Of a stretch of 64,000 bases of DNA, positions 41,691 to 64,000 are shown piece by piece. Positions within the stretch are counted from its first letter, which is position 1. Every line of letters starts with the position of its first letter. A model generated the notes under the pieces. The model saw nothing but the letters and a program-made list of their open reading frames with translations, was not told the DNA's origin and did no database searches. Source of the DNA: a virus (Duplodnaviria > Heunggongvirae > Uroviricota > Caudoviricetes); IMG/VR virus record IMGVR_UViG_2609459856_000007, positions 28,436 to 92,435 of that record. One strand, written 5' to 3'. The translations under genes were made by a program, and so were the position numbers.

Positions 41691-41691
41691 A

Positions 41692-41778: not shown

Positions 41779-42231
41779 ATGTTACTTAACTGGCAGGGAC
41801 GCCACTTCATGGAAATAAATCACTCACGAATAACATCGTACGAGATTGCGGATTACATGATCCGCACTAAATCTCTTCTGTCAGCGAAAGAACTCGCAGC
41901 AATTCTTGAAAAGGAATACCCGCATCTGGATGTCGATAAGCGCGATGTTTATCTGCGCTTAAAGGCTATCGCTGTGTCTAAGTATTCGTCTGTTTTGATT
42001 GATGACAGTACACGCCCACGTAGATTTCAGATCCACTCTCTGAATCCTGAATTCTTTCGCCGCAGCCGCGCTCCGCGCCGGTTTGATGAAAAACTCCAGA
42101 ACGAACTCTATATGACGCAGGACGAAAAGGAACGCCGGGAGCACCAGCCTTGGGTGATGGCGCGTCAACTTTTCAATAAGGTGGTCCGTCAGCACCGTCA
42201 TTACGGTAATGCCACATCCGCACGTATCTGA
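41779..42231 (+). CDS. lpa: late promoter activator-like protein
   Basis: 150-aa ORF between C1 operator and pacA, as in P1; assigned by position. Confidence 0.5.
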   Translation: MLLNWQGRHFMEINHSRITSYEIADYMIRTKSLLSAKELAAILEKEYPHLDVDKRDVYLRLKAIAVSKYSSVLIDDSTRPRRFQIHSLNPEFFRRSRAPRRFDEKLQNELYMTQDEKERREHQPWVMARQLFNKVVRQHRHYGNATSARI

Positions 42232-42317
42232 TTGATTGCTTGCCCGTTCCGGGCCTTTTGACATGTGACTTTCGTTACCCTCGCGTCAAAAAGAGTTTTA
42301 TACGAAAGGAAGCATAA

Positions 42318-44995: not shown

Positions 44996-45019
44996 CTCAT
45001 TGACCATGCCGGATGGAAA

Positions 45020-45871: not shown

Positions 45872-45981
45872 TGATCCTCCTCCAGAATTGACATGGCCAA
45901 CAACTCACAGCGGATTACACTGGGAGTTGTTGGCCACCATTATAGAAGGATCCAACGAAAATAATAGATTTATTAGTGCAT

Positions 45982-46191
45982 TTATTGTGAGTCTGGCTGG
46001 TTAGTGGCCATGAGATATTCGATTGTGTCAGTGAGATCATCCAGGTCGTCTTGGGTGATGCGGTACTCCTGATTGGATATCTTTGAGTAGTGTTCAGCAA
46101 TGGCGCGGGCAGCGTCGGTTTCGGCGGGGTCTACAGATAAAGCGTTAGAGCAATGTCTAACGTCGTCGATGGTTGGTGGAATGAAAGCCAT
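45982..46191 (-). CDS. coi: C1 inactivator Coi
   Basis: 69-aa ORF upstream of c1 on same strand. Confidence 0.65.
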   Translation of the reverse strand: MAFIPPTIDDVRHCSNALSVDPAETDAARAIAEHYSKISNQEYRITQDDLDDLTDTIEYLMATNQPDSQ

Positions 46192-46429
46192 AATTATGCC
46201 TCACTGTATTGACAACACAGAGCCTGAAGCTCTGACCTACTGTTTCACCCATGATCCATGCTGGGGTAATCTAACAACATTGCGCTGTGTGTAAGATGAG
46301 CAATGCATAGCTGTAATGCCGTTGTATAAGGTTTCCCTGTTTGCTCATTTCCTTCTGAGCCGCTCTACAACGCTGAAGACACATTAAATAGTGAATCCAA
46401 AGTCGTATTACGAAACGGCGGCAAAACTA

Positions 46430-46446
46430 TAATTTATTAGAGCAAT
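46430..46446. promoter_or_regulatory. C1 operator
   Basis: Reverse complement ATTGCTCTAATAAATTA. Confidence 0.6.
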
Positions 46447-46512
46447 TGTCAAACAACTATGAAAAACAATCCAGTTTTTGGCTGGTGGAGTGGGATTTTT
46501 CTCTCAAAATTT

Positions 46513-46529
46513 ATTGCTCTAATAATTCT
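46513..46529. promoter_or_regulatory. C1 operator
   Basis: ATTGCTCTAATAATTCT. Confidence 0.6.
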
Positions 46530-46573
46530 TGATTTTTATGCGCAGCTGGACGTAAACTCCTCTTCAGACCTAA

Positions 46574-46607
46574 TAACTTCGTATAGCATACATTATACGA
46601 AGTTATC
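46574..46607. other. loxP: loxP site-specific recombination site
   Basis: Exact ATAACTTCGTATA-GCATACAT-TATACGAAGTTAT (13-bp inverted arms, 8-bp spacer). Confidence 0.97.
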
Positions 46608-47016
46608 TTAAGGGTTATTGAACATGATCAATTTACCTGTAAATCCATACAGTTCAATACCTTATCAGGTCAAATAGTGATCATTTGATCAAGGTTGCGC
46701 TACGTAAAATCTGCGAAATGTTGGCAGTGTTAGTGCTCCAGATTTCGCGTAGCGCACTTAGCACCACCAATCAATCAGAGGTGAAAAATGGGATATTCAG
46801 CTGCTAAAGTGTCCACTCATATTGAGCTTGAGAAAAACCGTGGTTACTGGCGGGCAAAAGGGGTTGATTGTGATAGTTGTCAACTGTCATTATCGCGCGG
46901 TGAAGAGAAAATAGAACGCACGCGCGGTCGCTGGCGTTTCTATGACGAGAACCATAAACAGGTAAAGGCAGAGCCGATCCTGTACACTTTACTTAAAACC
47001 ATTATCTGAGTGTTAA

Positions 47017-48048
47017 ATGTCCAATTTACTGACCGTACACCAAAATTTGCCTGCATTACCGGTCGATGCAACGAGTGATGAGGTTCGCAAGAATCTGATG
47101 GACATGTTCAGGGATCGCCAGGCGTTTTCTGAGCATACCTGGAAAATGCTTCTGTCCGTTTGCCGGTCGTGGGCGGCATGGTGCAAGTTGAATAACCGGA
47201 AATGGTTTCCCGCAGAACCTGAAGATGTTCGCGATTATCTTCTATATCTTCAGGCGCGCGGTCTGGCAGTAAAAACTATCCAGCAACATTTGGGCCAGCT
47301 AAACATGCTTCATCGTCGGTCCGGGCTGCCACGACCAAGTGACAGCAACGCTGTTTCACTGGTCATGCGGCGGATCCGAAAAGAAAACGTTGATGCCGGT
47401 GAACGTGCAAAACAGGCACTAGCGTTCGAACGCACTGATTTCGACCAGGTTCGTTCACTCATGGAAAATAGCGATCGCTGCCAGGATATACGTAATCTGG
47501 CATTTCTGGGGATTGCTTATAACACCCTGTTACGTATAGCCGAAATTGCCAGGATCAGGGTTAAAGATATCTCACGTACTGACGGTGGGAGAATGTTAAT
47601 CCATATTGGCAGAACGAAAACGCTGGTTAGCACCGCAGGTGTAGAGAAGGCACTTAGCCTGGGGGTAACTAAACTGGTCGAGCGATGGATTTCTGTCTCT
47701 GGTGTGGCTGATGATCCGAATAACTACTTGTTTTGCCGGGTCAGAAAAAATGGTGTTGCCTCGCCATCATCCACCAGCCAGCTATCAACTCGCGCCCTGG
47801 AAGGGATTTTTGAAGCAACTCACCGATTGATTTACGGGGCTAAGGATGACTCTGGTCAGAGGTACCTGGCCTGGTCTGGACACAGTGCCCGTGTCGGAGC
47901 CGCGCGAGATATGGCCCGCGCCGGAGTTTCAATACCGGAGATCATGCAAGCTGGTGGCTGGACCAACGTAAATATTGTCATGAACTATATCCGTAATCTG
48001 GATAGTGAAACGGGGGCAATGGTGCGCCTGCTGGAAGATGGTGATTAG
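47017..48048 (+). CDS. cre: Cre tyrosine recombinase
   Basis: 343 aa; MSNLLTVHQNLPALPVDATSDEVRKNLMDMFRDRQAFSEHTWKMLLSVCRSWAAWCK... matches P1 Cre. Confidence 0.97.
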   Translation: MSNLLTVHQNLPALPVDATSDEVRKNLMDMFRDRQAFSEHTWKMLLSVCRSWAAWCKLNNRKWFPAEPEDVRDYLLYLQARGLAVKTIQQHLGQLNMLHRRSGLPRPSDSNAVSLVMRRIRKENVDAGERAKQALAFERTDFDQVRSLMENSDRCQDIRNLAFLGIAYNTLLRIAEIARIRVKDISRTDGGRMLIHIGRTKTLVSTAGVEKALSLGVTKLVERWISVSGVADDPNNYLFCRVRKNGVASPSSTSQLSTRALEGIFEATHRLIYGAKDDSGQRYLAWSGHSARVGAARDMARAGVSIPEIMQAGGWTNVNIVMNYIRNLDSETGAMVRLLEDGD

Positions 48049-48065
48049 CCGTCAACGCATAATAA

Positions 48066-48082
48066 ATTGCTCTAATTATTTG
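48066..48082. promoter_or_regulatory. C1 operator
   Basis: ATTGCTCTAATTATTTG. Confidence 0.55.
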
Positions 48083-48098
48083 ATATTTATGGTGGCAT

Positions 48099-48410
48099 AT
48101 GAGAAAGGATTTCAACATCGACGGAAAATATGTAGTGCTGTCTGTAAGCACTAATATTCAGTCGCCAGCCGTCATTGTCACTGTAAAGCTGAGCGATAGA
48201 ATGCCTGATATTGACTCAATATCCGTTGCGTTTCCTGTCAAAAGTATGCGTAGTGCTGAACATTTCGTAATGAATGCCACCGAGGAAGAAGCACGGCGCG
48301 GTCTTGGTAAAGTGATGTCTGAGTTTGTCGAATTTCTGGGGCTCGTTAACAAAGCCCTCACAATCAGTTCAGCAAGGTCCAAAGCGTTAACAGCTTCCAT
48401 GATGAAATAA
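48099..48410 (+). CDS. hypothetical protein (cre-adjacent gene)
   Basis: 103-aa ORF between cre and ref. Confidence 0.5.
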   Translation: MRKDFNIDGKYVVLSVSTNIQSPAVIVTVKLSDRMPDIDSISVAFPVKSMRSAEHFVMNATEEEARRGLGKVMSEFVEFLGLVNKALTISSARSKALTASMMK

Positions 48411-48542
48411 AAAAAAGCCTGGCAAGGAGCCAGGCTGCACAAAAGAGCGGGTTTGTATTCCGCATCCAATCAATCAAGAAGGAGTATAGCACACAGGTAC
48501 TGAAGTGAAAAAATGTGATTCGCGATAAACAAAATATCTACC

Positions 48543-48559
48543 ATTGCTCTAATTGATTG
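48543..48559. promoter_or_regulatory. C1 operator overlapping promoter upstream of ref
   Basis: ATTGCTCTAATTGATTG followed by TATAAT at 48561-48566. Confidence 0.6.
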
Positions 48560-48625
48560 CTATAATTGAGCCGCAGTTTTTGTCAACTACGAAGACGTGC
48601 CATTACTTAACTCCTTGACATCATA

Positions 48626-48650
48626 GGCGGCCATTAGGCCGCCTTTTTTT
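48626..48650 (+). terminator. rho-independent terminator-like hairpin in ref leader
   Basis: GGCGGCC-atta-GGCCGCC then TTTTTTT. Confidence 0.5.
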
Positions 48651-48656
48651 GACCAT

Positions 48657-49217
48657 ATGAAAACAATCGAACAAAAAATTGAACAGTGCCGCAAGTGGCA
48701 GAAGGCAGCCAGAGAACGAGCGATCGCTCGGCAACGGGAGAAGTTGGCTGATCCGGTCTGGCGAGAATCTCAATATCAGAAAATGCGAGATACTATCGAC
48801 CGCCGTATCGCTAAACAGAAAGAGCGCCCACCAGCCAGCAAAACGCGGAAAAGCGCTGTAAAAATAAAATCTCGTGGCTTGAAGGGGAGAACACCAACGG
48901 CGGAGGAACGGCGCATCGCCAATGCTCTTGGCGCTCTCCCCTGCATTGCCTGCTATATGCATGGAGTAATATCTAATGAGGTGTCTCTGCACCATATCGC
49001 TGGTCGTACCGCGCCGGGTTGTCATAAAAAGCAATTGCCACTTTGTAGATGGCACCACCAGCATGCAGCACCGGCTGAAGTAAGAGCAAAATACCCCTGG
49101 CTGGTCCCTGTTCATGCCGATGGTGTGGTTGGAGGCAAGAAAGAATTCACCCTGCTGAACAAGTCAGAGATGGAGTTACTGGCTGACGCCTATGAGATGG
49201 CAAACATCATGCACTAA
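48657..49217 (+). CDS. ref: recombination enhancement function Ref (HNH endonuclease)
   Basis: 186 aa; HNH-like Cys/His cluster CIACYMHG...SLHHIAGR...LCRWHHQ; C1 operator upstream. Confidence 0.8.
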   Translation: MKTIEQKIEQCRKWQKAARERAIARQREKLADPVWRESQYQKMRDTIDRRIAKQKERPPASKTRKSAVKIKSRGLKGRTPTAEERRIANALGALPCIACYMHGVISNEVSLHHIAGRTAPGCHKKQLPLCRWHHQHAAPAEVRAKYPWLVPVHADGVVGGKKEFTLLNKSEMELLADAYEMANIMH

Positions 49218-49405
49218 TAAATATATTATTTTTAATGATAAATGATTGACAACTGACAAGTGACTTCAGTCAGAATCATCACACGCCCGGTACGGATGGA
49301 TCCCTTTTCAAATATTCCATGGACGGCACAGTCTGAGTACCGGGCGCTACCTTCAGTTGTATTGCTAAGCCGCCGCTGGTGGCTTTTCTTTTTTGTAGGG
49401 GCGCT

Positions 49406-50047
49406 ATGGATAAGAAAATATGCGTTGTTTCGATGAGCGTCGGCAAACCGGCGTCAATGACTGCTGCATGGATCAATAACGAGCTGATAATGGCTGAGCG
49501 GACCAGCTACCCTGAACGCCGCCGCGACATGGAACTCCAGCTGCTGCGCGAATTGCGAGAAAAAGAGGAAAAGGGTTTTATCGTGCTGGTGGAAGAGGAA
49601 AACAGCTTTATTACTGGTCGAGTTGGCCAGCGTGTAAGGTTGCGCGATCCCTTCATGAACGGCAGGCCGGTACTAATTGAGGCAATGCAGATTTATAAGG
49701 AGCTGGAACGCCAGAAAGCAATCAAGTTACCGCGCAAGGAATCCGGCAAATACATCCTCCACCAAAGCATCTTCGATTCCGAACACGATAAAAAAGGCGA
49801 TGAATTTTTCAACATCAATTGGAGCGAAATAACGACAGAGCATGTTCTGACGTTACTCTGTTGCTTTGCGACGGAATACAACAACGTTGCCAGCGCCGAC
49901 TACATCAGGGCAATGGCTTGTGAAGTGGATAGTCGTGATGACTCATCGCTGATAGCGTCATATATAAACATCATCAAGAAAACTCAAATTATGGGATGCG
50001 CTAGAGTTCCTCAAGGAATACTCACCGGAAAGAATAATATTCTATAA
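49406..50047 (+). CDS. hypothetical protein at P1 mat position
   Basis: RBS GGGG before ATG 49406; ORF track start 49379 is an upstream GTG; assigned by position. Confidence 0.45.
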   Translation: MDKKICVVSMSVGKPASMTAAWINNELIMAERTSYPERRRDMELQLLRELREKEEKGFIVLVEEENSFITGRVGQRVRLRDPFMNGRPVLIEAMQIYKELERQKAIKLPRKESGKYILHQSIFDSEHDKKGDEFFNINWSEITTEHVLTLLCCFATEYNNVASADYIRAMACEVDSRDDSSLIASYINIIKKTQIMGCARVPQGILTGKNNIL

Positions 50048-50144
50048 CCTACGAAGGTTATTTGTTACTTTCTGCGTAAACCTACAACTAACCTTCCTAA
50101 GTTAAGGAAGGTATTTATCATGAAGTGTAGACATAAGCGTATTA

Positions 50145-51155
50145 TTACATGGGCTTAACCACAACCTTTCCGTATATATCAAGTTTTGAATGTAATACGT
50201 TGACGTGAGACAATTCTTTATTCGAACTAACTTTATCTAAAATTATATTTTTATCTTTTTCAGTCATGTTATACCCTAAGGTAATTTGCTTGAATGCAGA
50301 AAAAGGAATTTTCTTTAAGTTAATTTCATGATAGTCATGAAAAACATCAGGATACTCATTTAATAGGCAGTCATCAATCGATGGAGAGACAATGCTTCCT
50401 ATTTTTCTCTCGCAATCAGCCAATGGAAAAATAATTCTACTTTCATTTTCAGGAAGCCACTCTTCACCTTTTGTATAAAGAAGCCTATTAATAAAAAGCT
50501 CGCGAACTGAATCTCGATTTAAGATCCCATGCAATGTATTATCTTTATTCTTTATATCTATATTCCTCGATGGCGCAGGATAGCCATTAAATCGCACAGC
50601 GCCTTTATAATAGGTTACAGATGCTCTATCTTCTGGATTATAACTAACATCACACGGCCGATATATTTTGAAAAAATCGTGTGTTTCATCGAAAACTACA
50701 GCAAACCCCTTTCCTATCGATGCATAATGATTCCACATGTGTAGATTGCAATCACTTTTTGATAGAGAGAACACACCAAGATGACAGCTTACGGCTTCTA
50801 CTAAATAATCGTTAAGGTACGTTACTATTTCTTGGAGTTTAGATTCATCATATGAATCCATTGAGGTAAAACCTTCATTGATTAACAAGTGTGGAAAATC
50901 CTCTCCGTATCGTTTCCCGCAAGGTTTTAAATAATACTCTAACTCTTGTATAGATGGGACATAAGATGGATCTCGTTGCATTTTCTTAAATTCATTTCTA
51001 GCCCATGCGTAATCGGCTGGTGAAAATTTATTAAAAAATGGAAGAAGTCGCGACTCACTCGACGGATCATTAAGATACTTTGGTTGCGTTGCTCTAAAGA
51101 AACCATCCTCCAGACAAGATGTTCTAATGTGCATGCCCGGCCAAGGTTTATCCAT
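50145..51155 (-). CDS. DUF2971-like protein, candidate abortive-infection/defence protein
   Basis: KYLNDPSSE and LGVFSLS...LHMWNHYA...KGFAVVFD resemble DUF2971 signature; visibly AT-rich relative to flanks. Confidence 0.5.
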   Translation of the reverse strand: MDKPWPGMHIRTSCLEDGFFRATQPKYLNDPSSESRLLPFFNKFSPADYAWARNEFKKMQRDPSYVPSIQELEYYLKPCGKRYGEDFPHLLINEGFTSMDSYDESKLQEIVTYLNDYLVEAVSCHLGVFSLSKSDCNLHMWNHYASIGKGFAVVFDETHDFFKIYRPCDVSYNPEDRASVTYYKGAVRFNGYPAPSRNIDIKNKDNTLHGILNRDSVRELFINRLLYTKGEEWLPENESRIIFPLADCERKIGSIVSPSIDDCLLNEYPDVFHDYHEINLKKIPFSAFKQITLGYNMTEKDKNIILDKVSSNKELSHVNVLHSKLDIYGKVVVKPM

Positions 51156-51237
51156 ATAACTCTCGCCTATATATTTAACTAACACTGTATGTCGATCCTG
51201 TTGTTTAAGCCCATATCATATGGGCTTTAAATGATTA

Positions 51238-51486
51238 TTAATCAGCATTCAGAAGCAATGCGTTATCTATGATGATCTGCTCCCATTCTTCGAATGCCCG
51301 ATCGCGGACACCTTGGGGAACACTGTTAGTTTTGAAATCGACGACCGTCCGCCATTTCCCGTCCGGGCGGTACATGCGCAGAGCTTTACTTCCCCCTTCC
51401 CTGCGCACCTCAACGTTATGCTTGTCAGCAAACTCTTGTAATGCTCGTAGCGTCCCATGCTTTACTGTGTAGTATCGCTTTTTCAA
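51238..51486 (-). CDS. small HicA-like fold protein lacking the catalytic His
   Basis: NVEVRREGGSKALRMYRPDGKWRTVVDF resembles HicA core with His replaced by Ala; TTG start with GGAGAG RBS. Confidence 0.35.
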   Translation of the reverse strand: MKKRYYTVKHGTLRALQEFADKHNVEVRREGGSKALRMYRPDGKWRTVVDFKTNSVPQGVRDRAFEEWEQIIIDNALLLNAD

Positions 51487-51584
51487 GTTTTCTCTCCAGC
51501 CTGTGCCAAGGCTTCAACTTCCAAATCGTAAGACTCAAACTCATAGTCCTGGTCGTCAACTTCTTCAGGCACTGGCAGTAAATG

Positions 51585-51923
51585 CTAGGCTGAGTATATC
51601 TGACCATTATCAAAACGCTCCTGGCTGTAGAGCGTCGCGGCTATGAGTGTTAGCGCCGGGCGGTCATAACGGTAAATTTTGCGAACGTCACGGTCAACGA
51701 GACGACCGAAATTACCATAACCGCGCTCCAGTAATAATTTTTTAATTTCCGGCCAGTATGGGCCATAGCTGCGGTACAGACGGGGATTTTTCAGTAATCG
51801 CCCGCGTAGCCCTGACAGGAAGAAATCAACGTATTCGTCTTCTGTCTTTCCTAACAACGCTGTACGGAGTACCGCTTCAAGATATGTTTTATTCGGTTTT
51901 ATTGTATCAGATAGTGTGGCCAT
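51585..51923 (-). CDS. hypothetical protein
   Basis: 112-aa ORF in same-strand cluster. Confidence 0.4.
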   Translation of the reverse strand: MATLSDTIKPNKTYLEAVLRTALLGKTEDEYVDFFLSGLRGRLLKNPRLYRSYGPYWPEIKKLLLERGYGNFGRLVDRDVRKIYRYDRPALTLIAATLYSQERFDNGQIYSA

Positions 51924-51956
51924 ATTATGCGACGCCCGGCGAACCGGGCGCTCCTG

Positions 51957-53324
51957 TTATGCGTATTGTTGGATGACGGCCAGAACGTCCGCCACGTTGT
52001 GTTTTGTCTCGATAATCCACCAGTTACCCGGGAAATCGCTGTTCTTTGCCTTCGCTGGCAGCCAGCGAGCGCCGAATTTCGCCTTGATTGCGTCTTTCGC
52101 ACGGAAAAGAATGCCTTTCATGCCGGACGCCTCCTGAAGCCCAAATACCTCGCCAGCGGCGAATTTTGGTGCGTACATCATCTTCAGGTCGGCGGTGGAT
52201 ACGCGATAATTCAGACCAAGAGACTGAGCTATGCTGGTGGCATCACCCTGTATTGATGATAACTCTTCTTGTTTCTCGTTTCTGGCGGCAATTTCTTCCT
52301 CCGTGATGTTGCCAAGGGCCAGGTTTATCCGATCAGCGTCGGCCTGTTTCTCTTCATCGGTGCGCCCGGCAAGAACCGTGTTAATTCTCTGCAATATCTC
52401 CACATGATTCTTGCGCATGCTGAGCAATTCCGGCGTAACATCGTTAAGAGCCACCAGCCCAAGGATGGCAAGGTCGGAAAACATTGATACCAGGTTGTAG
52501 GTCATGCGATAGCTGAGTTGGCCATAGGCTGATGGCAACTGCACCGCATCCATTTGATAGGCATCCATAAATTTAGAGCCGTCGTTTACGACATCCGCAA
52601 TTGCCGGTGTGATTTTCCCTGTGGTGGCGGCCTCCCTGATTGCTGTTACCCACGATTGAGTCAGCGCGGCGACTGCATGATTCAGATTGGCTTTCCGTTC
52701 TGCTGCAATGCGCGCGCTTGCTGCGTCCATTGCCTGCTTGATCTCGTCTTTATTGCTGTAAATGCCAATGGGACCAAACTGTGTTGTGGTGATCTCATAA
52801 TCTGACGCCCGGAACTCATTGGTACCGAAAATGGCATTGGTGACCTCAAGTTCAGAATCCCCGTTACGAGTAGCCCCCTGACTTGTTTTCTCCGGCATTT
52901 TTGCGATCGCATCCGCTATTTTCTCCTGAATTGCTTCAGGGGATAGCGTATCTCCGTATGACGCGATTACATCGCTATAATTGGATCCAAACAGTTCAGT
53001 CAGGAATACTTCTGCCAAACGGACCTGGCGGTTATTCCCTTCCGACATCATACCAAGCACCCATTTAGCAATTGACGACTTCAGCGCGCCGTCACGGCGA
53101 TCCGGGTAAACCGCATGCTTCAGTGGGTCCGTATAGGTACCAACAAAATCAATGCTATAGCCTGACTCTGTAGTCTGAACGCCGTATGAGTCAGTGATTT
53201 TGATCATGCCGCGCTGCTGGAAACGGTAGAAATCGTCACAGGAAATGATGTCGTTAATCCCGGCGATGGAGACGCCACCACTGATTTTCTGCATAACAGC
53301 ATCTTCATCGGGAGTTACATCCAC
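51957..53324 (-). CDS. hypothetical protein (455 aa)
   Basis: No nucleotide-binding or nuclease motif seen; start overlaps upstream gene by 10 nt. Confidence 0.5.
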   Translation of the reverse strand: MDVTPDEDAVMQKISGGVSIAGINDIISCDDFYRFQQRGMIKITDSYGVQTTESGYSIDFVGTYTDPLKHAVYPDRRDGALKSSIAKWVLGMMSEGNNRQVRLAEVFLTELFGSNYSDVIASYGDTLSPEAIQEKIADAIAKMPEKTSQGATRNGDSELEVTNAIFGTNEFRASDYEITTTQFGPIGIYSNKDEIKQAMDAASARIAAERKANLNHAVAALTQSWVTAIREAATTGKITPAIADVVNDGSKFMDAYQMDAVQLPSAYGQLSYRMTYNLVSMFSDLAILGLVALNDVTPELLSMRKNHVEILQRINTVLAGRTDEEKQADADRINLALGNITEEEIAARNEKQEELSSIQGDATSIAQSLGLNYRVSTADLKMMYAPKFAAGEVFGLQEASGMKGILFRAKDAIKAKFGARWLPAKAKNSDFPGNWWIIETKHNVADVLAVIQQYA

Positions 53325-54046
53325 CTGTTATCCAGCGTCTTCACATCCCAGTTACCCGATTTGGTGCCTTTGAAGGTAAAGATGATCTCCACGTCTGCGC
53401 GCTGGCTGTCGAAGTCCAGCGACTTAATGCGAACGATATCACCGGCACAATCGTAGTATTGGCCTACACGCCATGAGCGATCGCCGATAACAAGGAACTC
53501 ACTCGCATGGTTAACCAGGTCAGGATCAACATCCAGAATGCCTTTATTTATTGCATCCTCCACCAGCGGGCGCAGGCGTTTGATATCCGTCGCGGCCTTC
53601 TGAGTACGGTTCAATAATTTCTCATAGCGGGAGATGGCTTGAGAGATATTAGCCTTGCGCTGAATGGCGCTTTTCAACGACGCGCGATACTGTGCTAACA
53701 ACATACGGTCTGTGTGATGGACACTCCCCCAGCGGGCCTTCCAGTCTGCGTTATCAGCTGCTTTGGCCATTACCGCCTGTTTGAATTTAGCTACCTCGGC
53801 GGTGGTCTTTTCAAATTCCGCTTTGCTTCGCTCTAATTCAGCGGTAAGTACCTCCACATCCTCACCAGCTGCGTGCTGCGCCTTGATGTAGTTCTGAAGG
53901 TCGATAGTAGCCTGTTCTTTCTGGCGAGCGCGTTGCGCGGCTTTCGCCTTATCCATTTGAACCTGCATCATTGCCAGACGTTCACCGTCATCCTTCGCGG
54001 TATACATCTGCATTTCGATCATATCATTGGCGTCGGCGTTCTCCAT
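53315..54046 (-). CDS. hypothetical protein with N-terminal coiled coil
   Basis: ORF track 53315..54106 (TTG); first ATG at 54046. Confidence 0.45.
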   Translation of the reverse strand: MENADANDMIEMQMYTAKDDGERLAMMQVQMDKAKAAQRARQKEQATIDLQNYIKAQHAAGEDVEVLTAELERSKAEFEKTTAEVAKFKQAVMAKAADNADWKARWGSVHHTDRMLLAQYRASLKSAIQRKANISQAISRYEKLLNRTQKAATDIKRLRPLVEDAINKGILDVDPDLVNHASEFLVIGDRSWRVGQYYDCAGDIVRIKSLDFDSQRADVEIIFTFKGTKSGNWDVKTLDNRWM

Positions 54047-54093
54047 TTCTGACTTATCTGAACGGAGGATATCGGAGATCCTGGGCTTCGTTT

Positions 54094-54116
54094 GGGAAAC
54101 GTACAATATTGTACGG
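54094..54116. repeat. left copy of imperfect inverted repeat, contains perfect 16-bp palindrome CGTACAATATTGTACG
   Basis: GGGAAACGTACAATATTGTACGG; inverted partner at 54282-54305. Confidence 0.4.
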
Positions 54117-54281
54117 TTGCGCTATTGCGGTAGGGTGTACTCCAACGCTATACGGTCTTTGGCAGACCTTTAGGGAAATGAGATAAGCTAAATGCGATAA
54201 GAGAAAAGCAATAACTTAAAGGCAATAGCTGATTACGATAAATCAATCAGTTACTTATCAGTATCGATTAAAAAATGCTCC

Positions 54282-54305
54282 TAACGTACAATAATTTCCG
54301 TTTCC
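54282..54305. repeat. right copy of imperfect inverted repeat
   Basis: CTAACGTACAATAATTTCCGTTTCCC; shares CGTACAATA and inverted GGGAAACG/CGTTTCCC with 54094-54116. Confidence 0.4.
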
Positions 54306-54731
54306 CAAACCGCCCCCTCCGATCCCGCGCCGGTCTACCCGCAGACGCATCTGAGTTTTCTGGCAAACGTCTATAACCAGAAGGCGCGTGAGTTCTACCA
54401 TTGTTATGGCGTACAGTTGATCGACGCGGCGTATGAAGCGCATCAAGAAAAGGGCGATGTGCCTGTGATGATCACCAAGCATTGCCTGCGTTTTGCCTTT
54501 AATCTTTGCCCGAAACAGGCGAAAGGTAACATCAAAAGCTGGAAAGCGACGCCAATGCAACTGGTCAACGGTGATGAGGTGCTGACGCTGAAATTTGGCT
54601 GTCGCCCGTGTGAAATGCACGTTATCGGCAAGATTAAAGATCACATTCTTAAAATGCCGCTGCCGGGCAGCGTGGTGGGTTCCGTCAGTCCGGAAGATCC
54701 GATGAAAACGCTGCCGAAGCGTAAACCTTAA
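54285..54731 (+). pseudogene. C-terminal fragment of a peptidase U32-family protein (5'-truncated)
   Basis: Frame open from 54285 without credible start; resembles U32 C-terminal region from memory (HCYGVQLIDAAYEAHQEKGDVPVMITKHCLRFAFNLCPKQAKGNIKSW); N-terminal catalytic part absent. Confidence 0.4.
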
Positions 54732-54835
54732 TCCTTTGCGACATCAGCCCGGTGGCGTTTACCGGGCCTTTGTGTTGGTATTTATTTCCGCCGGTTAACG
54801 CCTGGCCCAAAGCCGACATCCGGCGAGGTGTCCGC

Positions 54836-54964
54836 TTAATGCGCTTTAAACCCCGCCGCAGTCATGAGCAGGCGAAAAAACATGCCCACCGCCGCCAGCG
54901 CCAACACGCTGCCGCCCCAAAGGATGACCAGCCACATCAGGCGTTTCCAGAGAGAATGTTGCAT
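54836..54964 (-). CDS. CydX-like small membrane subunit (42 aa)
   Basis: MQHSLWKRLMWLVILWGGSVLALAAVGMFFRLLMTAAGFKAH; start overlaps subunit II stop by 1 nt. Confidence 0.5.
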   Translation of the reverse strand: MQHSLWKRLMWLVILWGGSVLALAAVGMFFRLLMTAAGFKAH

Positions 54965-55974
54965 CAGTGATACCCCTCGCCATGTTGCACTTTGCCGCGA
55001 AACACATAGTAACTCCAGAAGGTGTACACCAAAATCACCGGAATGATGAGCAGCGCACCGACCAGCATAAACCCCTGACTCTGGGCGGGGGCGGCTGCCT
55101 GCCAGAGGGTAACCGAAGGCGGAATAATGTGCGGCCAGATACTGATGCCCAGGCCGCTGAAACCAAGGAAGATTAGCCCGAGCGTCAGCACAAACGGAAA
55201 CGTGTGGTTTTCCGGACGACCCAGTGTGCGCCATAACCAGACGCTGAACGCGATCACCAGCACCGGAACCGGCAGCAGATAGCCCAGGTTGGGAAGCGTA
55301 AACCAACGGTCGGCGATCGCCGGATGCGCTAACGGTGTCCAGAGGCTGATTATCGCAATTGACAACAGCAGGGCCAGCAGCAGTTTTTTCGCGACGCTGC
55401 GCATTTTATCCTGAAGCGGATTTTCGCTTTTCATCACCAGCCAGGTTGCGCCTAAGAGCGCATAGGCAACGACCAGTCCGACGCCACAGAACAGAGTGAA
55501 GGGGGTTAACCAGTCGAACGGCCCGCCGCTGTAGCTGCGACCGGTCACCGGGAAACCGTTGATCACTGCGCCAACCACGATCCCTGGGGCGAAGGTAGCC
55601 AGAATCGACCCGCCGAGAAAAGCATGGTCCCAAAATGGGCGGTGGGCTGGCGTGGCCTTGAAGCGAAACTCGAAGGCCACGCCGCGAAAAATCAGTCCGA
55701 TCAGCATCAGCGTCAACGGAATGGTCAGCGCATCGATAATAACCGCATAGGCCATCGGGAAAGCCCCAAACAGCCCCGCGCCGCCCAGCACCAGCCAGGT
55801 TTCATTACCGTCCCACACCGGCGCGACGCTATTGACCATCACATCACGATCCTCTGCGTTTCGTGTGACAGGAAACAGAATGCCAATACCCAAATCGAAT
55901 CCATCCATCACGATATACATTAGCGTGGCGAAAACGATGATCACAAACCAGATAACCGATAAATCAATACCCAT
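54964..55974 (-). CDS. cytochrome bd-type quinol oxidase subunit II (CydB/CioB-like)
   Basis: 336-aa polytopic membrane protein coupled to subunit I. Confidence 0.8.
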   Translation of the reverse strand: MGIDLSVIWFVIIVFATLMYIVMDGFDLGIGILFPVTRNAEDRDVMVNSVAPVWDGNETWLVLGGAGLFGAFPMAYAVIIDALTIPLTLMLIGLIFRGVAFEFRFKATPAHRPFWDHAFLGGSILATFAPGIVVGAVINGFPVTGRSYSGGPFDWLTPFTLFCGVGLVVAYALLGATWLVMKSENPLQDKMRSVAKKLLLALLLSIAIISLWTPLAHPAIADRWFTLPNLGYLLPVPVLVIAFSVWLWRTLGRPENHTFPFVLTLGLIFLGFSGLGISIWPHIIPPSVTLWQAAAPAQSQGFMLVGALLIIPVILVYTFWSYYVFRGKVQHGEGYH

Positions 55975-57374
55975 TAGCGATGTGCCTTATGTTGAGAATC
56001 GAGGACGGCGGCGGAAAGCGGCCTGGCGGGGGTGCCCGGCGGCGGCGCGGAATCATCTTCCAGCGGGCCTTTGCGGATCAGGCGAATCATATAGCTGTAG
56101 CCGACGCCAAAGACTGAGCTGTAGACAACAAAGAAAGCGAGCAACGAAATGCTCATATGTAAATCGCCGTGGGCCGACACCGCGTCGGCAGTACGCTGTA
56201 AACCGTACACCACCCACGGCTGGCGTCCGACCTCAGTGGTCACCCAGCCCGCGAGAATGGCGATGAGCCCCGAGGGTCCCATCCATAGCGCAAAGCGCAG
56301 GAACGGGCGCGAGGTGTAGAGGCGCTGCCTGTAGCGCAGCCAGAGCGCACAGAGCCCTAGCAGGATCATTAACATGCCCAGGCCGGCCATGATGCGAAAC
56401 GACCAGAACACGATCGTCGAGTGAGGGCGATCCTCTTTGGCGAATTCTTTTAGCGCCGGAACCTGTTTATCCAGACTGTGCGTCAGGATCAGGCTTCCCA
56501 GCGCCGGGATCGCCAGTCCATAGCGGGTGCGTTCCTGTTCCATATCCGGCCAGCCAAACAGCAGCAGCGGCGTGGGCTCACCCGGCGGGTTTTCCCAGTG
56601 ACCTTCAATCGCGGCGATTTTGGCTGGCTGATGTTTCAGGGTGTTCAGCCCATGCATATCGCCGATTAACGCCTGCACCGGCGCGACAATAAGCGTCATC
56701 CACAACGCCATGGAAAACATCGTGCGAATGGCTGGCGTTGCGTTGCCGCGCAGCAGATGCCAGGCTGCCGAAGCGCCGACAAACAGCGCGCTACTGAGAA
56801 ATGCGGCGACGGACATATGCAGCAGCCGATAAGGGAACGAAGGATTGAAGATAACGGCGAACCAGTCCACGGGCACAACCTGGCCGTTGACGATCTCAAA
56901 CCCCTGCGGCGTTTGCATCCAACTGTTAGACGCCAGGATCCAGAAGGTGGAAATGAGGGTGCCAAGCGCCACCATGCAGGTTGAGAAGAAATGCAAACCC
57001 GGACCGACTTTATTCCAGCCAAACAGCATCACCCCGAGGAATCCGGCTTCAAGGAAGAAAGCGGTCAGCACCTCATAGGTAAGCAACGGCCCGGTAATAC
57101 TGCCTGCGAATTCCGAAAAACCGCTCCAGTTGGTGCCGAACTGATAGGCCATCACCAGACCGGAAACCACGCCCATGCCGAAATTTACGGCGAATATTTT
57201 TGACCAGAAGTGGTACAACGAGCGCCAGACCGGATTTTTGCTTTTTAGCCAAAGGCCTTCCAGCACCGCCAGATAACTGGCAAGCCCAATGGTGATCGCC
57301 GGAAAGATAATGTGAAATGAAACTGTAAAGGCGAACTGGATCCTTGCCAGGTGATACGCATCAAGACCAAACAT
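55974..57374 (-). CDS. cytochrome bd-type quinol oxidase subunit I, short Q-loop form (CydA/CioA-like)
   Basis: N-terminus MFGLDAYHLARIQFAFTVSFHIIFPAITIGLA; GWxxxExGRQPW near C-terminus; 466 aa. Confidence 0.85.
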   Translation of the reverse strand: MFGLDAYHLARIQFAFTVSFHIIFPAITIGLASYLAVLEGLWLKSKNPVWRSLYHFWSKIFAVNFGMGVVSGLVMAYQFGTNWSGFSEFAGSITGPLLTYEVLTAFFLEAGFLGVMLFGWNKVGPGLHFFSTCMVALGTLISTFWILASNSWMQTPQGFEIVNGQVVPVDWFAVIFNPSFPYRLLHMSVAAFLSSALFVGASAAWHLLRGNATPAIRTMFSMALWMTLIVAPVQALIGDMHGLNTLKHQPAKIAAIEGHWENPPGEPTPLLLFGWPDMEQERTRYGLAIPALGSLILTHSLDKQVPALKEFAKEDRPHSTIVFWSFRIMAGLGMLMILLGLCALWLRYRQRLYTSRPFLRFALWMGPSGLIAILAGWVTTEVGRQPWVVYGLQRTADAVSAHGDLHMSISLLAFFVVYSSVFGVGYSYMIRLIRKGPLEDDSAPPPGTPARPLSAAVLDSQHKAHR

Positions 57375-57497
57375 GCCTGACTCCGCATTAAAAATTGATT
57401 CAGCGCAATTCTAAGCGTGTGAGGCAATGAGGGGCAGAAACAGAACAGACATATTTAACCATAACAGTTTGCAAATCGTTGTGAATTTTATTCACTG

Positions 57498-57956
57498 TTA
57501 TACACTGCGAGGCTCACCTGCATTGACCGACGAGAAACCAGAATAAAAAATACCAGCGTCTGGCTGAACAACTTTGCGAACAGATCGCCTCTGGCGTCTG
57601 GCGACCCGGCGACGCGCGGCCTCTTTGCGGTGGGAGTCGGAGTCCATTGCGCTGGCTACGCGCCCGGCAGCAACGAAGTCATAAAGCATATCCTGTGCAT
57701 GCTCATCTACGGTGTCATCACGTAGCGGAATGCGGGCGTATTGTTCTTTGGTAAACACGACTGCACGGTAATTTGAGTGCGGGATTGCATTCATACGTGC
57801 CGTGATAGTGGCTTCATCTGCCAGTTTAAGGGCATCGCGCATAACTGGAGTGCCATCAGTACCAAGAACAGGAGCACCTCCCACGCTAACGCGCGGGCCC
57901 CGAATCTCACCGTTCTGAAACCACAACAAAAAAACATCAGGAATAAAAAACACCAC
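57498..57956 (-). CDS. hypothetical protein (start uncertain)
   Basis: ORF-track ORF; Arg-rich C-terminus. Confidence 0.3.
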   Translation of the reverse strand: MVFFIPDVFLLWFQNGEIRGPRVSVGGAPVLGTDGTPVMRDALKLADEATITARMNAIPHSNYRAVVFTKEQYARIPLRDDTVDEHAQDMLYDFVAAGRVASAMDSDSHRKEAARRRVARRQRRSVRKVVQPDAGIFYSGFSSVNAGEPRSV

Positions 57957-58454
57957 ACAAACACAGCACTGTACCCCCCCTCATAACTGAAAAGCGCCGC
58001 CGCCCCCGCCCGAAGGGCGGGAACAACATCGCTTTTAATTATGAATGTTGTAAGTACATTGTCATCGCTGTCAGTCTTCTGGCTGGAAGTCCTCAGTACA
58101 CGCTCGTAAGCGGCCCTCACGGCCCGCTAACGCGGAGATACGCCCCAACTTCGGGTAAACCCTCGTCGGGACCACTCCGACCGCGCACAAAGGCTCTGTC
58201 ATGGCTGAAAACGGGTATGGCTTAGCAGGGCCGGGGGTGGGTAAGGTGAAATCTATCAGTCAGTACCGGCTTACGCCGGGCTTCGGCGGTTTTACTCCGG
58301 TATCATATGAAACAACAGAGTGCCGCCTTCCATGCCGCTGGCGCGGCATCAGGACAACTGAAGAGTGACGGCGCACATTAACATCAAACAGACTTGTTAA
58401 GCAGTCTTTCAGGGTGTAATCTGAAGACCTGTTAAATAGTCTCAGAGGTGTGTT

Positions 58455-58706
58455 ATGCCCAGTATCATTTTGTCTGACACCAGTGCAAGCGTCAGTGAGC
58501 TGAAAAAAAATCCGATGGCAACTGTCAGTGCCGGAGAGGGGTATCCTGTTGCCATTCTTAACCGGAATCAGCCAGCATTCTACTGTGTCCCTGCTGAGCT
58601 CTATGAAAGAATGCTTGATGCCTTGGATGACCAAGAGCTGGTAAAACTGGTTACTGAACGCAGCAGTCAGCCTCTGCATGATGTGGACCTGGACAGTTAT
58701 TTATGA
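58455..58706 (+). CDS. stbD: RelB/StbD-family antitoxin
   Basis: 83 aa, MPSIILSDTSASVSELKKNPMATV...; RBS AGAGG; coupled to toxin. Confidence 0.7.
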   Translation: MPSIILSDTSASVSELKKNPMATVSAGEGYPVAILNRNQPAFYCVPAELYERMLDALDDQELVKLVTERSSQPLHDVDLDSYL

Positions 58707-58990
58707 CTTATACAGTAAAATTCCGGGATGATGCACTGAAAGAATGGCTCAGACTGGACAAGACCATTCAGCAGCAGTTCGCAAAAAAACTGAAAAAATG
58801 CAGTGAAAATCCTCATATAGCTTCTGCAAAACTACGTGGATTAAAGGACTGCTATAAAATCAAACTTCGCGCATCAGGTTTTCGTCTGGTTTATCAGGTT
58901 ATTGATGATATGTTAATTATTGCGGTCGTCGCAGTAGGTAAACGTGAACGCAGCAACGTTTATCATCTCGCCAGTGAACGGATGAAATAA
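58703..58990 (+). CDS. stbE: RelE/StbE-family toxin
   Basis: 95 aa; FRLVYQVIDDMLIIAVVAVGKRERSNVY RelE/ParE-fold pattern; ATGA overlap. Confidence 0.7.
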   Translation: MTYTVKFRDDALKEWLRLDKTIQQQFAKKLKKCSENPHIASAKLRGLKDCYKIKLRASGFRLVYQVIDDMLIIAVVAVGKRERSNVYHLASERMK

Positions 58991-59849
58991 TATCCTGGTC
59001 AGCACTCTTTCTTACCTGCTTCCATTTTTTCAGTGATTCTTTTCCTGCATGCAGAAAAAAAGCCTACCCTGTGGGCAGGCATAACAGACAATCGCACAGT
59101 CAGTGTTGAAATTAATGATGTCACGCATTATACCCGGTGGATACACAAACCATCCCTGCAAATGCACTGGCATCCTAATCAACGTCTGAAACAACTGCAA
59201 TGGCCGGACCTGTGATTTCAGAGAAAGTTATTATGTTTATTGAATATAACCGAAGTGATAAATAAAAGTATTATCACCTTTAATATTTATGCTTATTGCG
59301 TGGTTTTATCTGGTTATATAAAGCACAGATGTTCTTATTATTTTCTGAAAAATAACCATATGGATCGATTTCCCCCACCCAGCCGAAGCGGTTCGGCTCG
59401 TTCGGCGTGTCGTCGACACTGAAGCGCTTATCCACTTCGTTCCAGCGGTAAGAGTTGTCGCTGTCGCTGACGAATGCCATCGGGTCGCTAAACAGCGTGA
59501 TCCGCCATGCGATCAAAAAGCGTAAGTGTTTCCGACAGACGAGCCGGTGAAAAAAGTGGTGTGTCTGGCAATACAGGCATCGTCCCCGAAATGGACGATG
59601 CCGTTGAAGGACTGGGGTATGGCAATAAGCCGCTTTATTATCGGATTCAGTGACCGCCTGGACGGTTACTTTTGAGAAAAGGCATTTACACACAATCCTA
59701 AACAGACTCCTATATTTCAGATTTTGTTATCAACGCATTTCAAATCTCTTAGAAATCATTACTGTCGTCATATTTTCCGAGGCAGCTCACCACCTAACCA
59801 TGTCTTATCAACAATATTTTGTGAAGGATATTTATAATGTAAAGACACA

Positions 59850-62800
59850 TCAGAAACGATATTCCACACTCAACATGGCAGATGTATTATGGTATCCATG
59901 TTCTCCAAGTTGAATGCCTGCATCAGCCCGGAATGCTACTTCTGGTGTTATCATTCCCACAACACCACCATTTATTTCTCCGATATCACGCGCACCATCC
60001 TGGTATATACTTACACCATTCATACTGGTGCCGAAAACACGACTATTGTGCAACCAGTGTGCCTCCACAAATGGTCTGAACGGAACCGCATACCGCGTAT
60101 TTTTACCGTTTTTGCTGGTAAGCCATGTTCTTGCTCCCAGGCGGGTGAGAATATTTCCGTTACCGGTATTTTCAATACTGGTTCCGTTACTTTCATGATA
60201 TTTGTCTGATTTTACATTCATCCGGACAACCTGAAGCTGCGGCTGAACATACCATTCATGACTTCCCTTGTAATTGTCGGTAAACTCTCCAGCCTTCCAT
60301 GAATATCCTGCTTCCAGAGATACCGTAAACCCTTTTGACTTCCATGACTCAGCAGGCAGCCGTTCTCCATTTATATGATTATCAAACCAGCTGTATTGCA
60401 GCCAGCTATCAAGATAAGAACCATTGTGTGTTTCATCATTGGCATACCATGTTGCATAAAGACCCGCTGTGTATCCATTCATTCTTCCTTCCGAATGGTA
60501 TCCGGTGCTCAGGGCATTCGTACTGTTATTATTATGACCATAGCCAGCCATCATACCTGTATGCCAGCGATCGGTACCATTCAGGCTCCACTGAGCTATA
60601 TCTCCCCCTATTAACACAACGTAGCTATTCCCCCGGGTTCTCAGCTGACTACTGTTGTCACGCCAGCGATTATGTTTTCCTTTATTATACATCCAGATAC
60701 CTGCTTCATTTTCTTCTCCTGTCATGTGGCTGATATACAACTCCTGTCCCTGTCGTTCATACAGATTCGTTACAAACAGATTATTTGCAGCAGCAATACT
60801 GGCAACATAGCTACCTGCCTCAGGACGCAAATTATTATCATGGCTTTCCGGTACAGCTTCAGGTTGTGGTACAGGAATGTCTTTTCTGCTAATCAGATAC
60901 CAGTTAGTGCTGTTAATCCCCTGACCACGTTTCAGTATGTAATCATAAGCTCCGGCTGTAATACGTTCCGTCTGAATGAATTCAGCATTATCAGCATTGC
61001 CACTGACGTGAATCACTTCAATCCCATTAAGTGTCTCTGCACCAGTACCACCGGCCTGAGTAACAGCGACACGGGTACGGCCACTGGCATTACCTTTAAT
61101 CACCAGACGATCTGTTTTCGAATTGTCACCACCTGTTTCTGTCTGGAGGAGAATAAGTCCATTTCTGCCAGTGTAATTCCCTCCGACAGTCAGTATATTA
61201 CCCGGCATATATGTAGTGAGATCGACTATACCACTATTGCTCAGATTTCCTGCAACGCCCCCAAACCCGGAGAGTTTGCCCTGCTCTTCAACAATGACCT
61301 GGTTACTGCCGAGCATCACCGGTGAATCTGCGTTCCCCAGTATCACTGTCCCCTGAATAATATCTGTCATCCCGGTCCATTTTGCGTTATCGCTAATGTT
61401 CAGTGCACCTGCTCCCGTCTTGCGAACATTACCATAACCACTGATATTGTTGGTAAGCTGCCATGCTGATGTACTGTTCAGAGTTAATGTGCCATAGTTA
61501 TCAACAAAGGCTGTCCCCAGATTATCAGCCGTGGATACAGCCAAATGAGCCCCCTTATTCACGGTAAAAACACCGGAAAAATTACGATTATTACCCGTTA
61601 TATCAAGCATTCCCCCATTTATGTTCAGAGAACCATCCCCTGCAATAGTACCTGCAGATTCTCCTCCATTATTCAGTATCAGACTTCCGCCATGAATGTT
61701 CAGCACAGAGCCTGCAGCCGTCAGTAGTTTGCTTATTGTCTGAGGATACCCATTCATATCCAGTTCTGCGCCACGGGATAAATATAAATACTCAGTCCGA
61801 CCAAGAGCATCAGGTGCAGCAAGAATTAATACGCCAGATTTAACCTCTGTATTTCCTGTATAATTGTTTGTTGCAGAAAGTATAAGAGTACCATTACCTG
61901 ATTTTGTCAGACTTTTGCCGTCCCAGCCATCATATAATAAAGGTGAAAGATTATCGGAAAGAGAAACGCCTATGTTCAGAGTGGCATCTTTTTCTATATT
62001 AAAGGTTCCATATCCCATCCCTTTTGTATTATTCCATCTCAGCATGGATATCAGTTTGTTATCGTCGTCATTTAAAGACGTATAAACATAACTTTCAGCA
62101 CCTTCTGTCAGTAATACATTGTATTGTACAATGTGACTATTATCAGCGATCGAGATACCTGTGTCTGACGACAATAATGTGTAATAGTCCTGAGTCCAGT
62201 TCTTAATTGATGTGTCTATATTAAGCCATGAATCACTTTTTAATGTAATAGTATTTGCGTGAACATTAGCATTTCCTACAGACAGGTTCATAGATGCGTC
62301 TTCATCAATACTTATATTTCCGTTAAAAATGGAGTTCTTGCCTGACAGATAAACAGATGAGCCATTCCCAATCATTAGCCCACCATTAATTGCTGTTGCG
62401 TTATTGATGTTTTTAATAATTAATTCATTTGTACCATTAACAGGTATACTAGCTAGTTTAATATCACCATTAATCACAGAATCTGAATAAATATCTAATG
62501 AATTATACCCGCCAGAAAAAATCATTGATGTATTATAAGCATCTTTTTGGCTATTATATAATCCTGAAAGATTACCATGATTATTAATATGGATATCTTC
62601 TCCATAAACAGAGCAACCACCGTCGGGGCCATATCCCCCCTGAACAATACCGTTATTATTCAAAGTGATTTGATTTCCAGAAATAGCATCTCCCCCTTGT
62701 TTTATTCCATATCCTCCAGATATCATGTTGTCGTTAGTAATGAAAAGATTACTACCATTAATACCATCACCACCGTTTACGCCATTACCGCCCAATATTC

Positions 62801-63347
62801 CTCCGGAATTATGCACTGTAATATTGCTACCGGTTACACCGGAACCACCTGTCCCACCTACATCATCACCTCCGTATATACTTCTGTAATTATCAACTAT
62901 AATATCATCCCCGCTTAACCCTGCACCTCCGCTACTTCCTGAGCCACCAAGACCATTACCCCCATATACATTTCTGTAATTGTTTATAGATATTTTGTTG
63001 CCACTAACAGCAATTCCACCATTATATCCATCTCCTCCCCAAACACTACCATTATTATTTAGCGTAAAGTTTTCACCGTAGACACCTGCACCACCGATTG
63101 ATGTATTGCTTGTTCCTCCTTTGATGTTAATACTGCTTTCAACAGATAGTATATTTTGAGTATAACTTGTTTTATACGGCACGCTGATATTAAGCGCCGC
63201 GTTTCCATCAACACCTGTAATACTCCTGGTTATACTTTCAGGTATACCATTACCATTCAGTTGTATTGTTTGCGCACCAGAAAAATGAGACTGCACAGAA
63301 TAAAGTATACTGACCAGAAATTGTAAAATTCGTATATTCTTATTCAT
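59850..63347 (-). CDS. autotransporter adhesin (type Va)
   Basis: Signal peptide MNKNIRILQFLVSILYSVQSHFSGAQT; Gly/Asn-rich beta-helical passenger repeats; C-terminal beta-barrel ending ...SVEYRF. Confidence 0.85.
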   Translation of the reverse strand: MNKNIRILQFLVSILYSVQSHFSGAQTIQLNGNGIPESITRSITGVDGNAALNISVPYKTSYTQNILSVESSINIKGGTSNTSIGGAGVYGENFTLNNNGSVWGGDGYNGGIAVSGNKISINNYRNVYGGNGLGGSGSSGGAGLSGDDIIVDNYRSIYGGDDVGGTGGSGVTGSNITVHNSGGILGGNGVNGGDGINGSNLFITNDNMISGGYGIKQGGDAISGNQITLNNNGIVQGGYGPDGGCSVYGEDIHINNHGNLSGLYNSQKDAYNTSMIFSGGYNSLDIYSDSVINGDIKLASIPVNGTNELIIKNINNATAINGGLMIGNGSSVYLSGKNSIFNGNISIDEDASMNLSVGNANVHANTITLKSDSWLNIDTSIKNWTQDYYTLLSSDTGISIADNSHIVQYNVLLTEGAESYVYTSLNDDDNKLISMLRWNNTKGMGYGTFNIEKDATLNIGVSLSDNLSPLLYDGWDGKSLTKSGNGTLILSATNNYTGNTEVKSGVLILAAPDALGRTEYLYLSRGAELDMNGYPQTISKLLTAAGSVLNIHGGSLILNNGGESAGTIAGDGSLNINGGMLDITGNNRNFSGVFTVNKGAHLAVSTADNLGTAFVDNYGTLTLNSTSAWQLTNNISGYGNVRKTGAGALNISDNAKWTGMTDIIQGTVILGNADSPVMLGSNQVIVEEQGKLSGFGGVAGNLSNSGIVDLTTYMPGNILTVGGNYTGRNGLILLQTETGGDNSKTDRLVIKGNASGRTRVAVTQAGGTGAETLNGIEVIHVSGNADNAEFIQTERITAGAYDYILKRGQGINSTNWYLISRKDIPVPQPEAVPESHDNNLRPEAGSYVASIAAANNLFVTNLYERQGQELYISHMTGEENEAGIWMYNKGKHNRWRDNSSQLRTRGNSYVVLIGGDIAQWSLNGTDRWHTGMMAGYGHNNNSTNALSTGYHSEGRMNGYTAGLYATWYANDETHNGSYLDSWLQYSWFDNHINGERLPAESWKSKGFTVSLEAGYSWKAGEFTDNYKGSHEWYVQPQLQVVRMNVKSDKYHESNGTSIENTGNGNILTRLGARTWLTSKNGKNTRYAVPFRPFVEAHWLHNSRVFGTSMNGVSIYQDGARDIGEINGGVVGMITPEVAFRADAGIQLGEHGYHNTSAMLSVEYRF

Positions 63348-63593
63348 ACTGTTTTTTCTTTAGTGATGCATTTTTTATCAACCACACAAGCACATTATTT
63401 CATTGATACTAATCACATCAGGATGAATGTTTTTTCTCAATAGAAATAAGTGTCTTTATTCCTTACCAATTTATTCTGGTTATTCCTCTTATCCAGACGT
63501 CTCGTGATACTCCCTGTATTTATTATAGAGTATATATATGTACTGCGTTTAAATCATGAAGACGACAACCTGTTTTACATAAATTATTCCTAA

Positions 63594-64000
<407 letters not shown>

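Follow-up and report, generated by a model that had tools for sequence, protein, structure and literature searches.

The gene pair at positions 58455 to 58990 of the window, by which we mean the whole 64,000-nucleotide stretch of DNA analysed here, represents an already known system: judged by its sequence, it is an intact copy of the well-known StbDE/RelBE-P307 plasmid addiction module. We consider it very probable that the pair works as a type II toxin-antitoxin operon of this kind, with RelE-type action. The prototype of stbDE is that of Morganella R485. The antitoxin gene (58455..58706, + strand, 83 aa, StbD or 'RelB-P307' type) was recognised from the ORF list, homology and its predicted fold, and the toxin gene (58703..58990, + strand, 95 aa, RelE/StbE) from the ORF list and homology; both begin with ATG. 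The antitoxin stop and the toxin start share the four bases ATGA at 58703-58706, as read directly in the sequence (…tattt ATGA ctt…), which together with the ORF list bears out the lengths and the overlap described in the original prediction. The assignment as a toxin-antitoxin pair is well beyond chance, and its type II reading is upheld with one refinement, namely that the antitoxin is predicted to have a YafN/Phd/YefM-type fold and not the ribbon-helix-helix of RelB. Antisense ORFs over the locus, such as the one at 58260..58679 (139 aa, minus strand), were regarded as spurious.

Protein lengths of 83 and 95 aa, a 4-bp overlap and near-identity to named members place the pair in the StbDE/RelBE-P307 group. 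With P307 relBE and the enteric stbDE modules it also shares the order of the genes, antitoxin first, the upstream boxes, a -10-like element and an upstream flank from the repA4 region; unlike them, it is detached from repA and lies in the cargo island of a phage-plasmid. A pair of the same lengths has been described as stbD (83 aa) and stbE (95 aa) on the ETEC plasmid pEntH10407 and the EPEC plasmid pB171, the gene order there being repA1 - repA4 - small ORF - stbD - stbE (PMC2762410). For the pair on the Shigella sonnei plasmid pINV/pSS (pINV below), RelE was shown to be toxic, and the cells were rescued when RelB was made from its own promoter; the pINV proteins are reported to be 87.5% (RelE) and 94.5% (RelB) identical to those of P307 relBE (bioRxiv 10.1101/2020.08.10.243006; PMC8923223), and it is through these published identities that the present pair is linked to P307 (M26308). 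P307 relBE itself is presented as the plasmid-stabilising prototype in PMC8923223, which cites Gronlund and Gerdes 1999. Protein identity between the present pair and that of S. sonnei pINV is 79/83 (95.2%) for the antitoxin and 90/95 (94.7%) for the toxin, a difference of four and five residues, respectively. For the present allele, toxicity and rescue are expected by analogy; the toxicity and neutralisation assay proposed as a check on the original prediction was passed, in the hands of others, by the 95%-identical pINV pair.

The pair is widespread among enterobacterial plasmids. Many E. coli plasmids carry an 801-nt stretch around it at 100% identity, and PGAP labels the products there as Phd/YefM antitoxin and RelE toxin. 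In PLSDB, the 536-nt pair was found in 479 plasmids of Escherichia, Shigella, Salmonella, Klebsiella and Citrobacter, falling into two main allele groups, one of 187 records at 99% identity or more and one of 230 records at 80-90%. The latter group sits directly downstream of an IncFII-type repA, as it does in S. sonnei pINV and in an IncK2/Z plasmid. Identity to the pair of an IncK plasmid is 81/83 (97.6%) for the antitoxin and 87/95 (91.6%) for the toxin. The same layout, an 83/95-aa pair with a 4-bp overlap, also occurs on the chromosome of Yersinia enterocolitica and on a Pantoea replicon.

Family assignment of the antitoxin took more than a search with a single sequence. The HMM search that had been proposed as a check on the original prediction settled the toxin, which exceeded the cut-offs of PF05016 and TIGR02385, and fell short for the antitoxin, which stayed under those of PF02604 and the YafN equivalog. 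As a single sequence, the antitoxin scored 24 bits (E 3.2e-5) against PF02604 (Phd/YefM; Pfam cut-off 29.8) and 41 bits against the YafN equivalog (NCBIfam cut-off 99), and it had a weak NCBIfam match to DnaT (E 6.7e-4). PF02604 was matched by all 23 of its 23 close homologues, with a best E of 9e-7. Relatives are numerous, with 4545 at E ≤ 1e-3 in a word-indexed search and 795 cluster representatives in an exhaustive search, and their source names include Phd/YefM antitoxin, antitoxin StbD and RelB/StbD; 'antitoxin StbD' is the name given to proteins 89% identical to the antitoxin.

A family profile (A3) built from 37 diverse members resolved the protein into two parts. Residues 2-71 of the profile aligned with K-12 YafN (hhalign probability 98.5%, E 1.6e-15), and residues 58-82 aligned with residues 54-79 of K-12 RelB, the solved RelE-binding peptide (90.4%, E 1.4e-6). 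Residues 1-50 of RelB, its ribbon-helix-helix N-terminus, showed no similarity to the antitoxin. Among PDB sequences, neither the single protein nor the profile of close homologues found a significant match to a solved structure. The diverse profile reached only two things there by hmmsearch: the RelB C-terminal peptide in complex with RelE (2kc8_B, E 0.0047; 4fxe_A, E 0.014) and the N-terminus of DnaT (9zbu/9zbt, E 4.7e-4). The antitoxin family was not significantly similar to the window's own P1-type Phd in hhalign comparisons (probabilities of 0.65% and 25%), and its Phd/YefM membership is accordingly based on homology to YafN and on the predicted fold, not on likeness to Phd itself.

The predicted fold came from AlphaFold. 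A first model, from an alignment of 23 near-identical homologues, was unusable (pLDDT 52.7); the model from 37 diverse sequences reached a pLDDT of 89.7 with the topology beta-alpha-alpha-beta-beta-alpha. When this model was compared with the PDB using Foldseek, the top 39 matches were all Phd/YefM-type antitoxins, among them PfiA, YefM, Phd, RelB1 and RelB2 of M. tuberculosis and VapB46. Probabilities ranged from 0.51 to 1.00 (at least 0.87 in 37 of the 39) and the best E was 8.5e-3; modest E-values are expected of a small domain.

The profile and the predicted fold together give good support to an antitoxin made of a YafN-like, Phd/YefM-type dimerisation and DNA-binding domain at the N-terminus (approximately residues 2-57), joined to a RelB-like C-terminal tail (residues 58-82) that is predicted from the profile comparison to bind RelE. 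Chromosomal RelBE of E. coli K-12 lies in the Qin prophage and is structurally known (PDB 4FXE, 4V7J/K, 2KC8). The present antitoxin resembles K-12 RelB in its last 25 residues and differs from it in the N-terminal domain, which is ribbon-helix-helix in RelB and YafN/Phd/YefM-type here, so the operator sequence and the mode of DNA binding must differ as well. Its N-terminal domain is homologous to that of YafN and its predicted fold matches Phd/YefM structures; unlike in YafNO, YefM-YoeB and Phd-Doc, however, the partner toxin is RelE and not YafO, YoeB or Doc, and YafN has an unrelated C-terminal segment for toxin binding. Solved precedents for a YefM-fold antitoxin with a RelE-type toxin are RelBE1 and RelBE2 of M. 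tuberculosis, which were among the Foldseek matches. The combination of domain and tail is an example of the accepted idea that toxin-antitoxin modules evolve by 'mix and match' (PMC10305079).

The similarity to DnaT, a replication-restart protein, was traced to residues 10-54 of the antitoxin (window 58482-58616), whose N-terminal domain is detectably similar to the DnaT N-terminus. This suggests that DnaT carries a Phd/YefM/YafN-like domain.

If the module is functional, its main role might be phage defence through abortive infection, or competition between plasmids or phage-plasmids, instead of post-segregational killing. Published work on relatives gives this reading some weight, as they showed no measurable vertical stabilisation: under laboratory conditions, no influence of the pINV pair on the maintenance of pINV could be measured (PMC8923223), and StbDE of an IncI2 plasmid, a more distant system with an 11-bp overlap that provides a loose context for the present pair, was dispensable for vertical stability and helped modestly when plasmids competed with each other (PMC11878559). 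In addition, the phage-plasmid that carries the pair already has two further toxin-antitoxin pairs. One is a GNAT acetyltransferase toxin with a DUF1778 antitoxin (TacAT/AtaRT-type; 14520-15318, - strand), 100% identical to the pYLPI6a pair; the other is the P1-type phd/doc addiction module (39834-40435, + strand), 98.5% identical to that of pLAO33. The pair studied here is therefore the third addiction module in the window, as had been claimed. Against a role in defence or competition, neither protein matched a PADLOC defence model, the pair had no match in the phage collection even in distant mode, P307 relBE has been reported to stabilise plasmids (Gronlund and Gerdes 1999, cited in PMC8923223), and the sequence gives nothing to tell the roles apart. 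We regard this alternative as unlikely; nevertheless, since close relatives are not always stabilising, what the module does for this replicon is uncertain. The joint reading, in which the antitoxin is a natural chimera of a YafN/DnaT-like Phd/YefM domain with a RelB tail and the main role is at the same time competition between mobile elements or phage exclusion, seems to us quite unlikely.

The region upstream of the pair contains signals of the kind expected for an autoregulated operon. A direct-repeat search revealed two copies of an 18-nt near-palindrome, 35 nt apart. Box 1 (AGACTTGTTAAGCAGTCT, 58390..58407, + strand) is operator-like, with 14 of 18 positions self-complementary and arms AGACT/AGTCT about TTAA, and overlaps the candidate -35 element; the similarly operator-like box 2 (AGACCTGTTAAATAGTCT, 58425..58442, + strand) covers the expected transcription start and the 5' UTR. 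The candidate sigma-70 promoter (58394..58422, + strand) consists of a -35 TTGTTA at 58394-58399, a 17-nt spacer and a -10 TAATCT at 58417-58422. A Shine-Dalgarno-like AGAGGTG (58444..58450, + strand), conserved across loci, lies 5 nt 5' of the antitoxin ATG. Across six aligned loci, the box cores GACTnGTTAnnnnGTC and AAnACnnnTTAnnnnGT and the intervening TAnnnT are conserved, and the remaining upstream sequence has diverged. The core GACTnGTTAnnnnGTC is invariant in all six loci, those of the Yersinia chromosome and Pantoea included, as are T58417, A58418 and T58422.

A consensus promoter scan returned nothing upstream of the pair at its threshold; the candidate, a weak sigma-70 promoter, was assigned by eye from position and conservation. 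The two conserved near-palindromes flanking it suggest autoregulation, with boxes 1 and 2 as putative operators, and the layout of boxes and promoter is the standard design of an autorepressed type II toxin-antitoxin operon. The authors of the pINV study assumed that the K-12 relO model transfers to their pair (bioRxiv 10.1101/2020.08.10.243006; PMC8923223). Given that the DNA-binding domain of the antitoxin is predicted not to be a ribbon-helix-helix, that model, including conditional cooperativity, is not simply transferable. No terminator-like site on the + strand was found by a scan 3' of the toxin gene. Terminator-like hairpins were seen on the - strand at 59062-59080, approximately 70 nt 3' of the toxin stop, and on the + strand at 58274-58288, approximately 100 nt 5' of the candidate promoter.

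The wider setting is that of a composite element. Positions 1-32 kb of the window match SSU5/pHCM2-like phage-plasmids (tail genes, DnaB-like helicase, primase and ParB-like genes), and 36.3-50 kb (36328-50000) is P1-like, with phd/doc, a late-promoter activator, the C1 repressor, a cre-like integrase and ref. These matches identify the window as a mosaic phage-plasmid in which two phage-plasmid lineages appear to be joined in one replicon, with the toxin-antitoxin module placed in a cargo island. A 14.6-kb block (48949-63594) comprising a ref fragment, DUF2971, a helicase pseudogene, the cyd operon, the toxin-antitoxin pair and an autotransporter is 99.9% identical in the plasmid NZ_AP025206.2, whose unrelated backbone carries IncA/C and IncHI transfer-gene remnants. 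Such identity in a different backbone indicates that the block moves as a unit between replicons.

Within the block, the upstream neighbours of the pair are a GntR fragment and a cytochrome bd-type ubiquinol oxidase operon (54836-57374, - strand; subunit I 55974-57374, cydB 54964-55974, DUF2474 small protein 54836-54964). A plasmid-borne cytochrome bd operon is unusual respiratory cargo for a phage-plasmid. Downstream are an alkaline-phosphatase pseudogene fragment (approximately 59331-59471) and then, approximately 860 nt from the pair, a 1165-aa autotransporter with an outer-membrane beta-barrel domain (59850-63347, - strand). The flank that travels with the module (57874..58454, + strand, including the hairpin at 58274-58288) corresponds by homology to the repA4 region, which follows IncFII-type repA in other plasmids, and this homology spans window positions 57874-58975. 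The locus holds only this repA-downstream fragment; repA itself is absent from it. A 55-aa RepA4-like ORF lies in the flank upstream of the pair at 58201-58368. Partial matches of 95-99% were found in 4526 E. coli replicon records and probably reflect the replicon-derived flank.

Such surroundings raise the question of whether the pair is an inert relic that came into the mosaic island with part of an IncFII-type replicon and has since ceased to be expressed or useful. The presence of a repA-downstream fragment without repA, the pseudogene fragments around the module (GntR, alkaline phosphatase, collagenase-like and helicase) and the silence of the promoter scan at threshold would all fit. However, both ORFs are intact, the ribosome binding site, the conserved boxes and a -10-like TAnnnT are present, and the allele is conserved to full identity in many plasmids and to at least 99% in the 187 PLSDB records. 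Wherever dS could be estimated, dN/dS was 0.02-0.07 in comparisons with the pINV, IncK, Yersinia chromosomal and Pantoea copies (dS was saturated for the antitoxin genes of Yersinia and Pantoea). These low values, together with the pair architecture kept in Yersinia and Pantoea, argue against an inert relic. Moreover, an intact toxin beside a dead antitoxin would kill the cell, and a dead toxin would be expected to gather changes. We therefore consider decay of the module highly improbable and favour a functional operon.

By all sequence criteria available, the toxin of this operon is a RelE-type mRNA interferase and not a ParE-type gyrase poison. It scored 56.8 bits against PF05016 (Pfam cut-off 23) and 35.8 bits against TIGR02385, the RelE_StbE model (NCBIfam curated cut-off 27.9). 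Searches of PDB sequences returned E. coli RelE entries only (4V7K, 4FXE, 4V7J and 2KC8; E 1e-29 to 6e-28), with a gap-free alignment over residues 1-93. BLASTP against K-12 RelE (from NC_000913.3), a protein of the same length, gave 51/94 identities (54%) and no gaps at an E of 3e-38. The residues R45, K52, K54, R61, R81 and Y87 (K-12 numbering), whose catalytic roles come from the structural literature on RelE and the ribosome (4V7J/4V7K), are all retained in these gap-free alignments; two of them, R45 and R81, are replaced by Ala in the 4V7J chain (pre-cleavage ribosome complex) that aligned with the toxin. The RelE/StbE label of the original prediction is thus supported. ParE and RelE share one common fold, and a gyrase poison could be read from PF05016, which is the toxin's top Pfam match and bears the name 'ParE_toxin', from a weak match to the ParE-like PF15781 (26.1 bits, under the cut-off of 28) and from the wording 'RelE/ParE family' in some plasmid annotations; yet PF05016 is a model for the entire RelE/ParE superfamily, and with the RelE_StbE cut-off passed, a RelE-binding type of tail on the antitoxin, and RelE both in its catalytic residues and in its closest relatives, we rejected the ParE identity as scarcely credible. 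A toxin of the ParE subfamily would be expected to lack the RelE catalytic set and to be nearest to ParE; here the full set is present and the nearest solved structures are those of RelE alone.

The mechanism that we propose for the operon follows the known systems. Free toxin would enter the ribosomal A site, cleave the mRNA codon there and stop translation and growth. An antitoxin dimer would bind DNA through its N-terminal Phd/YefM-type (YafN-like) domain, and the RelB-like C-terminal helix and tail would wrap around RelE and neutralise it. Both genes would be co-transcribed from one promoter, with translational coupling through the ATGA overlap, and the antitoxin or the toxin-antitoxin complex may repress this promoter through the two 18-nt boxes over the -35 element and the transcription start. 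Of the two proteins, the antitoxin would presumably be the shorter-lived. On loss of the replicon, leftover RelE would poison the cell, by way of post-segregational killing or plasmid competition, and this would favour keeping the phage-plasmid with its cargo island.

The finding has little importance other than for annotation. Together with the two other addiction-type modules, the pair probably helps the mosaic E. coli phage-plasmid and the cargo island on it, with the cytochrome bd oxidase and the autotransporter, to persist in the population. The sole added value of our analysis is that it clarifies the nature of the 'RelB' of the StbD group, for which a solved structure was not detectable in our PDB searches. 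The 'RelB' of the P307/StbD group appears to be a Phd/YefM-type (YafN-like) repressor with a RelB-like tail and not a protein of the RelB fold, so that operator recognition and conditional cooperativity should not simply be copied from K-12 RelBE.
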